Below are positions 10,625 to 52,302 of a stretch of DNA of 64,000 nt, piece after piece (positions within the stretch are counted from its first letter, which is position 1; every line of letters starts with the position of its first letter). Origin of the DNA: an uncultured delta proteobacterium (GTDB lineage Bacteria > Desulfobacterota > DSM-4660 > Desulfatiglandales > HGW-15); contig CAVPOU010000004.1 in NCBI GenBank assembly GCA_963707125.1, positions 511,234 through 575,233 on the forward strand, written 5' to 3'. The notes under the pieces were generated by a model. The model was not told the origin of the DNA, made no database searches, and saw only the letters and a program-made list of their open reading frames with translations. A program made the translations under genes and the position numbers.

Positions 10625-10701
10625 TGGTGCGCCCAGGGTGATTCGAACACCCGACCTACGGATTCGTAGTCCGTTGCTCTATCCAACTGAGCTATGGGCG
10701 C
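10625..10701 (-). tRNA. tRNA-Arg (anticodon ACG)
   Basis: The reverse complement folds as a cloverleaf: acceptor GCGCCCA/TGGGCGC, D stem GCTC/GAGC, anticodon stem ACGGA/TCCGT with loop CTACGAA, T arm GGGTG-TTCGAAT-CACCC, and an encoded CCA. Confidence 0.95.
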
Positions 10702-11949: not shown

Positions 11950-12291
11950 ATGATCGTTAGAAATTTGAATGACAGAGAGGTTGTAGAGACCACATACCTT
12001 GCCCACGGCGGGGCCATAGCGCAGATGATCTTGGATCGCAGGATTCTCAAAGAAATAGGTTTTCTAGCGGTTGCAAAGCTGGAAAGGGGAAGGACCATAG
12101 AAAGTCATAGAGATCCTATGGAGGAAATATACTTCGTCTTGAGCGGGGAGGGGGAGATGTCCGTGGATGAGGAGACGAGGCATGTACGTCCCGGCGACGC
12201 CACCTGGATTCCCACAGGATCGGCTCACAGTCTTACGAACTCGTCAGAACAAGATCTCCTCATCCTGGTGGTTGCCTCTTCAAACTGGTGA
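11950..12291 (+). CDS. Cupin domain protein
   Basis: 113 aa with two cupin motifs (ESHRDPMEEIYFVLSGEG ... PGDATWIPTGSAHSL). GGAGG precedes the ATG. Confidence 0.75.
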   Translation: MIVRNLNDREVVETTYLAHGGAIAQMILDRRILKEIGFLAVAKLERGRTIESHRDPMEEIYFVLSGEGEMSVDEETRHVRPGDATWIPTGSAHSLTNSSEQDLLILVVASSNW

Positions 12292-12597
12292 GTAACGTTC
12301 AGAAGGGTTTGCATGGGACCGCCATACCTGGACAGGGCTGGGACCTTTTCTTGCGTTCCAAGTCTCCCGGGCTGGTCTTTTCTACGACTTACCTGCGAGG
12401 GAAACTTGCCCCCTCCACCGTTCCCCTCGCGTGCGCTCGGGGCCGGGGCTTCCCCCACAGATAAGTCGTGAAAAGACAGCGCCCTCCCGCCGGTCACTCC
12501 AGAAAAGGCCCCAGCCCTGTCCGACGTTTGGCTCGTTGCAAGAGATCCCTTTTGTTTAAGCCCATGTAAACACTTTTGAACGTTGCCAACTGGTGAG
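12283..12597. mobile_element. Fold-back MITE (~295 bp) with 23-25-bp imperfect terminal inverted repeats and 10-bp direct duplication AACTGGTGAG
   Basis: The direct repeats lie at 12283-12292 and 12588-12597. The left TIR TAACGTTCAGAAGGGTTTGCATG (12293-12315) matches the reverse complement of 12563-12587 (GGCAACGTTCAAAAGTGTTTACATG) at 19 of 22 aligned positions. Internal inverted blocks also pair: ggacagggctgggaccttttct / agaaaaggccccagccctgtcc. Confidence 0.8.
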
Positions 12598-12685: not shown

Positions 12686-12713
12686 TTGACAAATATTCTA
12701 TTTTATATATAAT
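12686..12713 (+). promoter_or_regulatory. Sigma-70-type promoter TTGACA-N16-TATAAT ahead of the EPS locus
   Basis: TTGACA at 12686-12691 and TATAAT at 12708-12713, in an AT-rich stretch ~30 nt upstream of ATG 12744. Confidence 0.6.
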
Positions 12714-12743: not shown

Positions 12744-13544
12744 ATGTATCTAGAACATTGGGGGCTGAAGGAATTCCCCTTTGAAAACGTTCCGGATCCT
12801 CGATTCTTCTATCTCTCCCATCATCATGAAGAGGCTTTGTCCCGGCTCCTCTATGCCGTCAAGATGAAGAAGGGTGGGGCCATGCTGTCAGGGGACATCG
12901 GATGCGGGAAGACTACTCTGACCAAAGTCTGCATCCAGGAGCTCGCCGGTGGCCGGTATGATATAAGCCTCATCGTAAACCCTAAGCTTGAGCCTTTGGA
13001 GTTTCTTCAGGAAGTTGTCTATCAATTAGGAATCTCAGACGTTCCGGATACCAAAGTAAAGTGCCTCAGGGTCTTGAATGAAAGAATGACTCAGAACATG
13101 AGGTCGAACAAAGAGACTCTGTTGATGGTCGACGAGGCTCAACTCCTGAATCATTCCACCCTGGAAGAGATCCGATTGCTTTTGAATGCTCAGTTAAATG
13201 ATCGATTTCTGATTACGATCATCCTCTTCGGACAACCGGAATTAAGAGAAAGAATCAAGGCGATCCAGCAAATCGATCAAAGGATTCCCATTAAGTACCA
13301 CCTGGCTCCTTTCGACATGGAAGATACAGCCCGCTATATTCTGTTCAGACTGAACAGGGCTGGAAGGGAGAAAAACACCCTTACGCGGCCGGCGATCGAA
13401 AAAATCTACGAGATATCCAAAGGAGTGCCAAGAAAAATAAACAATCTTAGCGACCTGGCCCTCTTGATCGGCTACAGCAAGAACCAAGAGATGGTCGACG
13501 TCGACATCGTGGAGACGATTATTCGAGATGGTGCGCTTCTCTGA
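12744..13544 (+). CDS. ExeA-like AAA ATPase (PEP-CTERM/EPS-locus type secretion ATPase)
   Basis: The N-terminus MYLEHWGLKEFPFENVPDPRFFY is typical of the ExeA family. Walker A is GDIGCGKTTL and Walker B is LLMVDEAQ. The track's TTG start at 12714 abuts the -10 box and was rejected. Confidence 0.8.
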   Translation: MYLEHWGLKEFPFENVPDPRFFYLSHHHEEALSRLLYAVKMKKGGAMLSGDIGCGKTTLTKVCIQELAGGRYDISLIVNPKLEPLEFLQEVVYQLGISDVPDTKVKCLRVLNERMTQNMRSNKETLLMVDEAQLLNHSTLEEIRLLLNAQLNDRFLITIILFGQPELRERIKAIQQIDQRIPIKYHLAPFDMEDTARYILFRLNRAGREKNTLTRPAIEKIYEISKGVPRKINNLSDLALLIGYSKNQEMVDVDIVETIIRDGALL

Positions 13545-20465: not shown

Positions 20466-20580
20466 GGTGTCTCACCCCCACCTGGCCTCCCCCATCGAGG
20501 GGGAGGAAACTATTAGTGGTCGCACAGAATTCCCCTCCCCTTGCGGGAGGGGCTAGGGGAGGGGGAAGCAAAAGGGGTAT
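20466..20580 (+). repeat. G/C-rich double-hairpin intergenic element (copy 1 of 2)
   Basis: GTGTCTCACC...CCTCCCCCATCGAGGGGGAGGAAACTATTAGTGGTCG...GAATTCCCCTCCCC-TTGC-GGGAGGGGCTAGGGGAGGGGGAAGCAAA. Nearly identical to 37741-37880. Confidence 0.85.
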
Positions 20581-29803: not shown

Positions 29804-31033
29804 ATGGATGAATTCATACCGTCGGCAAGAAGAGATCTCGAATTCTTTCCGGTCCAGCTTCAGGGCAAGCAGTACGTCCTGATCCGGGATCACCTCGGGC
29901 TGGTCCAGGAGGGGAAAGCCGTTGAGATTCCCCTCTATCAGTTCATGGTGCAGCTGGACGGCACGACCACCATCAGGGATCTCCAGATGGCGCTGATGAG
30001 GCAAAGAGGCGGGATGCTGGTGAGCAGCGACGAGGTGAAAAGCGTCATTGCTCATCTTGACGATTCTTTTTTTCTAGAATCAGAAAAGTTTGAAAAGGCC
30101 AGGAATCGCGTCGTAGAGGAGTTTGTATCCCAGAGCATAAGGCCAAGCTCCCACAGTGGCCGAGCCTACCCTGCTGATCCCAGTGAACTAAAAAGAAAGC
30201 TGAACGAGATCCTGTCCCTTCAGCCCGATTCTAAAAAGCCGGAAGGTGAACTCCTAGCCCTTGTGGCTCCTCACATTGACCTGTCTGTGGGAGGCAGGGT
30301 CTACTCAAGGGCCTATCAGATCCTGAGGGACAGGTCGCCAAAGACCGTGGTTATCCTTGGGACAGGGCACCAAATGGCTCAGGATCTCTTCGCTCTCTCG
30401 GACAAGGACTTCGAAACTCCTCTGGGAGTCGCTGTATGCGACCGGGCATCGGTTGGAAAGCTGAGAGCCGCAGGCAGGACTGCGGTAGCGAAGAATGATT
30501 TTGCTCATCGGGCGGAACATTCCATCGAGTTTCAAGTTTTATTCCTTCAGCACATTCTGCCGAAGGATTCTTTTACCATTGTTCCGGTCCTCTGCGGCAA
30601 TCTGCAAATGACCCTTTCAGAGTATAGCCGTCGAGCTTACAGAGAAAAGGCAGGCGTTTTCCTCGAAGCGCTGAAAGATATTCTTAAGCACCACGGGGAA
30701 GAGACCCTTCTGGTCGCCGGGGTTGATCTCTCACACATCGGCCCAAAATTTGGTCACGAGATGCCGGCACAATATCTCAAAAGACAAAGCGAGGCTCATG
30801 ACAGGGCCTTGCTTAAGGCCCTGACCGCGATGGATGCCGATTCATTCTGGGAGGATTCCGGGAAGGTTAAAGACCAGTACAATGTGTGCGGATTTGCAGC
30901 TCTCGCCTGTCTTCTGGAAGTCCTGCCACTCTGCAAAGGCCACCTCCTTGGATACGAGATGTGGCATGAGGAGGCAACAAGGTCAGCGGTCAGTTATGCC
31001 GCCGTTGCTTTTTCCGAGCAAAAGCAACAGTAA
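29804..31033 (+). CDS. Memo-family (AmmeMemoRadiSam system protein B-like) protein with ~105-aa N-terminal PqqD/RRE-like extension
   Basis: Memo core motifs: GRAYPADPSEL, VAPHIDLSVGG, VVILGTGH, GVDLSHIG. N-terminal pattern: YVLIRD...IPLYQFMVQLDGTTTIRDLQMAL...VKSVIAHLDDSFFL. Confidence 0.75.
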   Translation: MDEFIPSARRDLEFFPVQLQGKQYVLIRDHLGLVQEGKAVEIPLYQFMVQLDGTTTIRDLQMALMRQRGGMLVSSDEVKSVIAHLDDSFFLESEKFEKARNRVVEEFVSQSIRPSSHSGRAYPADPSELKRKLNEILSLQPDSKKPEGELLALVAPHIDLSVGGRVYSRAYQILRDRSPKTVVILGTGHQMAQDLFALSDKDFETPLGVAVCDRASVGKLRAAGRTAVAKNDFAHRAEHSIEFQVLFLQHILPKDSFTIVPVLCGNLQMTLSEYSRRAYREKAGVFLEALKDILKHHGEETLLVAGVDLSHIGPKFGHEMPAQYLKRQSEAHDRALLKALTAMDADSFWEDSGKVKDQYNVCGFAALACLLEVLPLCKGHLLGYEMWHEEATRSAVSYAAVAFSEQKQQ

Positions 31034-31160
31034 GCAGTCCGGAAAACCAGTAAGCAGTAGGCACTAAGCAGTAGGCAGTAAAGGTCAATAAACCCAGCAA
31101 CCCCTTTTCTTTTTTGTGTTTACTGCTTACTGCGTACTGCATACTGCCTACTTCTTGCTT
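31028..31160. repeat. Inverted heptamer arrays: CAGTARG units (31028-31082) facing nTACTGC x4-5 (31118-31160) around a T-rich loop
   Basis: cagtaag/cagtagg/cactaag/cagtagg/cagtaaa are contiguous, and 'tactgc' recurs every 7 nt on the right. The block lies between convergent genes. Confidence 0.85.
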
Positions 31161-31164
31161 CCTC

Positions 31165-31569
31165 CTAGTCTCTTTCACATATTTCGACCAGCACCCCATT
31201 GGTCTCTTTGGGATGAATGAAGGCGATCTTGGCGCCCCCTGCACCCTTTCTCGGCTTCTCGTCGATGAGCCTGACGCCTTTAGCCTTTAACTCAGCCAGC
31301 GCTTCTTCGATGTTTTCGACTCGAAAGGCGATGTGCTGGACTCCCTCTCCTTTAGCCTCGATGTACTTTGCAACAGGGCCGTCCGGATGGGTGGATTGAA
31401 GGAGTTCCACTTCGCTATCCGTGATGGGCAGAAAAGCCACATTCACTTTCTGGTCAGCCACATTTTCAATATCGTGGATCTTGAGGCCCAGAATGTCCGT
31501 ATAGAATTTGCCGGTCTGCTCAATGGACTTTACGGCAATACCGATGTGGTCGATGTGTTTTACTTTCAT
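31165..31569 (-). CDS. mce: Methylmalonyl-CoA epimerase (VOC/glyoxalase fold)
   Basis: MKVKHIDHIGIAVKSIE...GEGVQHIAFRV...GAKIAFIHPK. Confidence 0.8.
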   Translation of the reverse strand: MKVKHIDHIGIAVKSIEQTGKFYTDILGLKIHDIENVADQKVNVAFLPITDSEVELLQSTHPDGPVAKYIEAKGEGVQHIAFRVENIEEALAELKAKGVRLIDEKPRKGAGGAKIAFIHPKETNGVLVEICERD

Positions 31570-37740: not shown

Positions 37741-37880
37741 GTGTCTCACCGATAACTTACCCAGGCAACTTCCCATCACCCCCACCTCGCCTCCCCCATC
37801 AAGGGGGAGGAAACTATTAGTGGTCGATAAGAATTCCCCCTCCCCTGGTGGGAGGGGTTAGGGGAGGGGGAAGCAAACAG
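37741..37880 (+). repeat. G/C-rich double-hairpin intergenic element (copy 2 of 2, with ~30-bp insertion)
   Basis: Shares GTGTCTCACC, CCTCCCCCATCAAGGGGGAGGAAACTATTAGTGGTCG and GGGAGGGGTTAGGGGAGGGGGAAGCAAA with 20466-20580. Confidence 0.85.
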
Positions 37881-37894
37881 GGATTGGAGAAGTT

Positions 37895-52060: not shown

Positions 52061-52136
52061 TGGAGGCGGCAATCGGATTCGAACCGATGAATAACGGTTT
52101 TGCAGACCGCTGCCTTAGCCACTTGGCTATGCCGCC
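52061..52136 (-). tRNA. tRNA-Cys (anticodon GCA)
   Basis: Acceptor GGCGGCA/TGCCGCC, discriminator U, encoded CCA. Anticodon loop CTGCAAA. T arm ATCGG-TTCGAAT-CCGAT. Confidence 0.9.
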
Positions 52137-52226: not shown

Positions 52227-52302
52227 TGGAGCGGGAAACGGGGCTCGAACCCGCGACAACCACGTTGGCAACGTGGAGCTCTACCAACTGAGCTATTCCC
52301 GC
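52227..52302 (-). tRNA. tRNA-Gly (anticodon GCC)
   Basis: Acceptor GCGGGAA/TTCCCGC, D arm GCTC-AGTTGGTA-GAGC, anticodon stem CCACG/CGTGG with loop TTGCCAA, encoded CCA. Confidence 0.95.

Follow-up and report, generated by a model that had tools for sequence, protein, structure and literature searches.

A fold-back miniature inverted-repeat transposable element at a cupin stop codon of an uncultured Desulfobacterota bacterium shares its ends with ISH6-family insertion sequences

In contig CAVPOU010000004.1 of an uncultured delta proteobacterium (Desulfobacterota), of which we analysed a stretch of 64,000 nucleotides (the window), a cupin gene runs into the 10-bp sequence AACTGGTGAG, which occurs at 12283-12292 and again at 12588-12597 and encloses a long palindrome. 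Is this an inserted mobile element, and if so, of which kind and moved by which enzyme? An earlier note on this DNA, made from the sequence alone, had proposed a fold-back miniature inverted-repeat transposable element (MITE) bounded by a 10-bp target-site duplication. We conclude, with a probability of about 0.93, that this is a 297-bp MITE and that it comes from a large family for which the DDE transposase is supplied in trans by ISH6-family insertion sequences (ISs) of Desulfobacterota (Mutator-like, p-MULT 2; relatives of ISDesp5).

The two copies of AACTGGTGAG are 100% identical and cannot be extended, with A vs C before them and T vs A after them. Inverted repeats lie directly inside the duplication, as had been described, but their length is 27 bp by the family definition given below, instead of 23-25 bp: AGTAACGTTCAGAAGGGTTTGCATGGG (12291-12317) and the reverse complement of 12561-12587 (GGCAACGTTCAAAAGTGTTTACATGGG) agree at 22/27 positions. 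The palindromic interior with its inverted blocks was also recovered. It forms a nested imperfect palindrome in which arm I1 corresponds to the ends, arm I2 comprises 27 nt at 89% and arm I3 comprises 25 nt at 80%. A sequence of 331 nt around the element folds as one long hairpin on either strand (−160.2 kcal/mol on the plus strand, z = −8.7; −164.7 kcal/mol on the minus strand, z = −8.5), and 0/100 shuffled sequences fold as well. The G + C content of this region is 0.59-0.63, vs 0.34-0.39 in the right flank. No second copy of the element was found within the 64-kb window.

The most direct evidence for an insertion comes from close relatives. We used contigs from the ENA, Logan and JGI metagenomes which encode exactly the same cupin protein, examining 10 (L001-L010) of 22. 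All ten share the same neighbours, encoding a formyltransferase, the cupin, an AAA_22 ATPase, an HD-GYP protein and a polysaccharide exporter, and in all ten the gap between the cupin gene and the next gene is 148 nt, vs 453 nt in the window. The empty alleles align as ...CTCTTCAAACTGGTGAGATGAAATC..., with a single AACTGGTGAG, a clean 305-nt gap and two substitutions across roughly 255 aligned flanking bases; in 10/10 contigs the base equivalent to 12290 directly abuts the equivalent of 12596, and flank identity is 99.0-99.5%. The empty site which the earlier note had suggested looking for is therefore present in every contig examined with an identical cupin, and the direct repeat that it had described is a single copy there. 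Because these alleles hold one repeat and a clean 305-nt gap, a larger duplicated segment, of which the direct repeats would be a part, is excluded; it is also the existence of these alleles, and not statistics, that places the flanking repeat beyond chance. Since the duplication is perfect and the flanks of the empty alleles are ~99.5% identical, the insertion is recent and polymorphic among very close relatives.

The element is one of many. A degenerate pattern of its ends, AACGTTCARAAGKGTTTRCATGGG (24-nt core), was run on genome, viral and metagenome contigs and matched 27 stretches in eight metagenome-assembled genomes (MAGs) of Deltaproteobacteria/Desulfobacteraceae, with up to ten contigs in one MAG, as well as at least 120 stretches in metagenome contigs, so that the sibling copies foreseen by the earlier note do exist; there were 0 matches in viral contigs. 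When mismatches were allowed, the matches listed included 72 inward-facing end pairs at 63-391 nt from core to core (mode 288-291) and two further, long end pairs at 1,478 and 1,823 nt. The consensus of the 27-bp ends is (G/A)GTAACGTTCAAAAGTGTTT(G/A)CATGGG. Flanks of the siblings are unrelated to one another, indicating dispersed loci, and the copies are mostly intergenic and frequently lie within a few bases of gene ends. Among the matches listed, about 45 full-length copies belong to the subfamily of the window copy and are 75-96% identical, the nearest to the window copy being L048 (95.6%), L042 (94.3%) and L050 (93.3%). Other subfamilies share the ends only, and the smallest member, a 69-bp copy in L019, consists of two ends and a 15-nt loop. 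Many single ends are located at contig ends, as expected because the repeat breaks short-read assemblies.

The length of the duplication was obtained by comparing the left and right flanks of 69 non-redundant two-ended copies among the matches listed (69-397 bp, mostly ~295 bp) in every register. Only one register (register 14) gives a signal, consisting of exactly eight positions at 0.90, 0.80, 0.71, 0.70, 0.70, 0.74, 0.87 and 0.91 identity; outside these positions, both at the three nearer the core and further out, identity is 0.23-0.33. The duplication is perfect (8/8) in 25/69 copies and 7/8 in a further 17/69. The target-site duplication of the family is exactly 8 bp, and each end extends 3 nt beyond the 24-nt search core; the left end has GGT (30/69 copies) or AGT (24/69) there, the right end ACC, ACT or TCT. 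With an 8-bp duplication, AACTGGTG, the element in the window occupies 12291-12587. Its 10-bp match is explained by the fact that the element starts with AGT and the flank continues with AGATG, the extra AG being a coincidence; the earlier claim of a target-site duplication thus stands, while the length of 10 bp does not. The reconstructed targets have a palindromic preference, T/AAnnnnTT/A (strokes bound the duplicated 8 bp), with AA at positions 1-2 in 57-61/69 copies, TT at positions 7-8 in 58-60/69 and a weak leaning to A/T in the middle. The window target deviates from AAnnnnTT at position 8. A motif which holds TAA on both strands fits the frequent position of copies near gene ends.

The search for an autonomous parent, also proposed in the earlier note, led to ISs with the same 27-bp ends. 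MITE-type ends flank a gene for an ISH6-family transposase of 451-457 aa in L132, L139, L158, L159, L160 and L161. The IS in L132 is ~1,484 bp from end to end with an open reading frame (ORF) of 451 aa, and that in L139 is 1,829 bp with a 455-aa ORF, 69% identical to the former. The further homologues with flanks (L158, L159/L160 and L161) form ISs of 1,483-1,488 bp with ends reading GGT A(A/T)CGTTCAAAAGTGT(T/G)TACATGG and flanks that fit AAnnnnTT, including a perfect 8-bp duplication, AATCTTTT, in L159. ISH6-family members are typically ~1.45-1.5 kb with a single ORF. No Pfam domain was found in the L132 and L139 ORFs; both proteins match the NCBIfam equivalog model NF041731 (transpos_ISH6) at 451 and 478 bits (cutoff 240) over model positions 1-414 of 414, and the next best model, IS256, reaches 24 bits, with ISLre2 and ISKra4 also faint. 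A truncated intermediate was found in L149, where one end is followed by the last 71 transposase codons only. The L139 copy has ~350 bp extra (97-445), which separate the left end from the 3' end of the transposase gene and contain an inverted repeat of their own at ~241-294.

The ISH6 family corresponds to p-MULT 2 of the Mutator-like transposases and duplicates an AT-rich 8-bp target with the consensus AANATNTT (Guerillot et al. 2014, PMC3942029), to which the 8-bp AAnnnnTT duplication of the MITE is alike. Its sole reported bacterial member is ISDesp5 from an uncultured Desulfobacterium (PMC3942029), which belongs to the same host group (Desulfobacterales/Deltaproteobacteria) and was compared here by its published description; large surveys found the family to be essentially haloarchaeal (PMC9208149). 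Homologues of the L132 transposase number at least 993 at E ≤ 1e−10, most of them on ~1.5-kb contigs and unnamed or called "hypothetical protein", and an organism is named for two of these, both Desulfobacterales MAGs. As they are so many and mostly unannotated, ISH6-type elements are far commoner in bacteria than the literature suggests. A precomputed Pfam domain is listed for 0 of these homologues, which marks a gap in Pfam coverage and in annotation for a widespread bacterial transposase.

Being short and non-coding, with inverted ends, a fixed duplication, dispersed copies, an empty site and ends in common with transposase-bearing ISs, all of which can be read directly from the sequences, the feature bears out the earlier interpretation as a MITE. 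That an ISH6-type transposase actually moves it is suggested by the shared ends and the shared target motif, and several observations weigh against so close a tie. The element is non-coding and no transposase homologue was found within the 64-kb window, which agrees with the earlier statement that it is non-autonomous and at the same time leaves the enzyme to be supplied from elsewhere. No similarity of the MITE to the IS was found beyond the terminal repeats and, because the interior is unrelated, the MITE did not simply arise from the IS by internal deletion. The left repeat of the window copy has two substitutions relative to the family consensus, and its right terminus reads GCC on the plus strand, a variant seen in no other of the 69 copies, the usual form being ACC; with these changed ends the copy may be impaired for further movement. 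Lastly, the left and right flanks of the ISs in L158, L160, L161 and L132 both fit AAnnnnTT yet are not identical, and L159 and L160 have a common left flank and different right flanks; assembly chimeras between copies are the likely source of such non-identical flanks, recombination between copies being the other. Two other accounts of the locus would do without this transposase. A resident, non-mobile structured RNA or regulatory hairpin, such as a stabiliser or terminator in the cupin 3' untranslated region with the repeat being incidental, could be argued from the very stable hairpin immediately after the stop codon. We regard this as very improbable and, as a sole explanation, refuted by the empty site and the family: alleles with near-identical flanks lack exactly the element plus one repeat, dozens of copies, every one flanked by an 8-bp duplication of its own, are scattered over unrelated loci in either orientation, and the ends are identical to those of transposase-bearing ISs. 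There is no T run after the stem as in an intrinsic terminator (the following sequence is GCCAACTGGTGAGATGAAATC), within the element a terminator scan gave just two small sites, on a level with shuffled sequence, and Rfam yields no match. A true 10-bp duplication, made by an IS4-like or ISAs1-like transposase (families known for duplications of that length), or else an enzyme of the IS66 type, whose ends start with GTAA and which duplicates 8 bp, deserves hardly any credence either. The 10/10 identity of the window repeat and the reading (G)GTAACG of the ends speak for it, but in the set of 69 copies the duplication covers just 8 positions, with the next ones at background, the common AGT left terminus accounts for the two extra matches with the flank AGATG, and ISs with these ends encode an ISH6-family transposase and resemble IS256, ISLre2 and ISKra4 only faintly. 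IS66 was dropped as the parent once these ISs had turned out to encode an ISH6-family transposase.

The alternative that deserves most attention concerns the interior, and would have the MITE carry a functional structured module which is kept by the propagating lineages. The module could act as RNA, the interior hairpin being transcribed most likely from the minus (G-rich) strand of the window, or as DNA, a hairpin or cruciform joining the ends for the ISH6-type (Mutator-like) transposase and so serving efficient transposition. When 39 full-length copies are aligned (alignment A3; A4 is its reverse complement), mean pairwise identity is 0.89-0.90 in the terminal repeats, 0.88 in ~170 columns of the interior and only 0.65-0.66 in two subterminal segments, so that the interior is as conserved as the ends. 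In A4, 97.3% of cells form standard pairs, vs 42-56% with slid partners; 23 of 63 pairs are changed on both sides (shuffles 8.8 ± 1.9, 0/500), and there are 67 further pair types (47.8 in shuffles, 0/500). Some copies contain additional small hairpins, for which the insertion points are fixed. The window-minus strand folds better in 38/39 copies (mean −163 vs −150 kcal/mol), and a strand-neutral arm-to-arm alignment holds 219 G.U-compatible mismatches for this strand vs 125 for the other. Private substitutions are spread almost evenly over the element (0.38-0.73 per column), while differences shared between lineages are concentrated subterminally (~8 per column vs 1.7-2.9 elsewhere), which points to a constraint on propagating lineages: copies would decay neutrally after insertion, and the lineages that propagate would keep the ends, the interior sequence and the stem pairing. 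However, all copies descend from common masters, so the strand asymmetry is weak evidence and may be inherited from one master, and gene conversion between the arms, or symmetric binding sites for a protein, could also make the arms covary. No match in the window MITE reaches the gathering threshold of Rfam 15, the best at E ≤ 10 having 14-15 bits vs cutoffs of 50-62, and the search for a promoter or terminator signal of a putative interior RNA was negative. Orientation relative to neighbouring genes, tested as a sign of RNA-level function, shows no bias (21 vs 18 on the left and 16 vs 15 on the right). Among loci which were selected by the end pattern, an interior without ends was seen only as rearranged fragments in L022 and in copies truncated at contig ends. 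Subfamilies with the same ends have unrelated or almost no interiors, down to 69 bp, so that mobility does not depend on this particular interior. The conservation and pairing of the interior could come from a requirement of mobilisation, from arm-to-arm conversion or from the success of one master, and we consider a real functional role of the fold-back interior unlikely, at perhaps one chance in five. If it were real, this would be a MITE family with a conserved functional cargo, spread across Desulfobacterota.

Taking the element as a MITE moved in trans, the transposase would bind both 27-bp terminal inverted repeats, make an 8-bp staggered cut at a T/AAnnnnTT/A-like target and join the element there, and gap repair would then produce the 8-bp duplication. 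The source copy would lie elsewhere in the same genome. The target here was AACTGGTG, which overlaps the cupin stop codon. Since the duplication is 8 bp, the present TGA consists of the TG of the duplication and the first A of the element, and the stop is restored because this copy begins with A; a GGT-type copy would have given TGG and an extended ORF. The earlier note had the insertion preserve the stop codon, and this holds in that the TGA is intact and the cupin protein is identical in filled and empty alleles, but the codon was rebuilt as TG + A and not carried whole within the duplication. A sigma-70 promoter with a perfect 12/12 consensus lies ~100 bp past the insertion and is present in both alleles. 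As the protein is unchanged, the stop rebuilt and this downstream promoter untouched, the insertion is probably neutral, although an effect on read-through transcripts is conceivable. The 90-aa ORF on the minus strand, which had already been suspected to be an artefact, proved to be one. It begins inside the element and ends in antisense of the cupin gene, and so the empty allele lacks it; in many of 38 siblings its similarity is split across reading frames, and its amino-acid identity is often below that of the nucleotides (e.g. 60% vs 84% in L025). Both strands of all copies contain long stop-free stretches from composition alone. The coordinates of the features are given in Table 1.

Table 1 Features at the cupin stop codon (window positions).
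Feature	Position	Strand	Remarks
Cupin gene, 113 aa, Pfam Cupin_2	11950..12291	+	Stop TGA at 12289-12291, formed by TG of the left duplication and the first base of the MITE
90-aa ORF	12225..12497	−	Artefact of a stop-poor, G+C-rich palindrome
Left 8-bp target-site duplication, AACTGGTG	12283..12290		No strand; single copy in empty-site alleles; length and register from 69 family copies
MITE, 297 bp, non-coding	12291..12587	+	Plus strand is the reference orientation of family alignment A3; absent, together with one duplication (305 nt), from L001-L010
Left 27-bp terminal inverted repeat, AGTAACGTTCAGAAGGGTTTGCATGGG	12291..12317	+	Same sequence class as the IS ends in L132, L139, L158, L159 and L161
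Fold-back interior	12318..12560		Variable subterminal stems around a conserved, covarying core hairpin, C-rich on the plus strand
Right 27-bp terminal inverted repeat, GGCAACGTTCAAAAGTGTTTACATGGG as read on the minus strand	12561..12587	−	
Right 8-bp target-site duplication, AACTGGTG	12588..12595		No strand
Sigma-70 promoter, TTGACA-16-TATAAT	12686..12713	+	Upstream of the AAA_22/ExeA-like ATPase gene (ATG at 12744)

We compared the family with known elements. It has the same 27-bp ends as a 1.48-kb IS with an ISH6-family transposase ORF, from which it differs in having no transposase, a length of 297 bp vs ~1,480 bp and an unrelated interior. The Correia elements of Neisseria and RUP of Streptococcus pneumoniae are bacterial MITEs. 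So are the MITEHsal elements of Halobacterium, in the table of which the ISH6 entry is transposase-bearing only (PMC7002104). In common with these, the present elements are short and non-coding, have terminal inverted repeats and fixed-length duplications, occur in many copies that are mostly intergenic near gene ends, show presence/absence polymorphism and would use a transposase in trans. They differ in being tied to ISH6 and in that the whole element is a long fold-back, with an interior conserved like the ends. Fold-back or palindromic repeat elements are also known as the eukaryotic Foldback elements and the Rickettsia palindromic elements, which the present ones resemble in being almost entirely one imperfect hairpin with few stops in some frames on both strands; here, however, there are discrete 27-bp ends shared with a DDE IS and an 8-bp duplication, and the insertions lie between genes instead of in frame inside them. 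In the literature searched we came across no description of MITEs associated with ISH6. This is a new, previously undescribed family of a well-known kind of element, and it links MITEs to the ISH6 insertion sequences. Its value for annotation lies in its being an abundant repeat in uncultured Desulfobacterota which breaks short-read assemblies, with most matches at contig ends, and which yields spurious ORFs of up to ~100 aa. The conserved, covarying interior is the sole aspect that may lead somewhere new.

Some candidates for further autonomous elements were rejected. Long ORFs adjacent to the end-only genome matches in L019, L026, L035 and L037 were suspected to be transposases and are actually housekeeping genes (acyl-CoA ligase, AspRS, HisRS, an IclR regulator, a beta-CASP nuclease and TctA), and when all ORFs were compared with one another, no neighbour proved to recur; the four matches are short or degenerate family members. 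A variant in MAG CAYTUL (L011, L015, L023 and L024) had been considered as an autonomous element cut by contig ends, and its interior is itself a fold-back.

Other presence/absence differences were also seen. In other species, L015 and L020 differ in the presence of a MITE upstream of a recA-like gene, with intergenic DNA too diverged for an exact empty site. L048 carries its MITE, the nearest sibling of the window copy, at 410-706 with a perfect duplication, AAGGGGTT, on a contig ~93% identical to window positions 30132-31005; the equivalent of its MITE-bearing spacer in the window (31005-31171) has no MITE and is likewise too diverged for an exact empty site. This makes a second presence/absence difference between related genomes. 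Within that part of the window, 31028-31166 is an intergenic inverted repeat of CAGTAAG/CAGTAGG-like units, with arms at 31049-31082 and 31119-31152 that are 85% complementary. A second intergenic repeat family of ~110 nt with two G/C-rich hairpins (...TCACCCCCACCTnGCCTCCCCCATCnAGGGGGAGG...CCCCTCCCCTGGTGGGAGGGGnTAGGGGAGGGGG...) occurs at window positions 20473-20580 and 37777-37885, and its second half recurs in L048 at ~334-379, beside the MITE. The only Rfam matches in the window are three tRNA genes (RF00005, 68-72 bits), all on the minus strand, at 10628-10701, 52064-52136 and 52230-52302.

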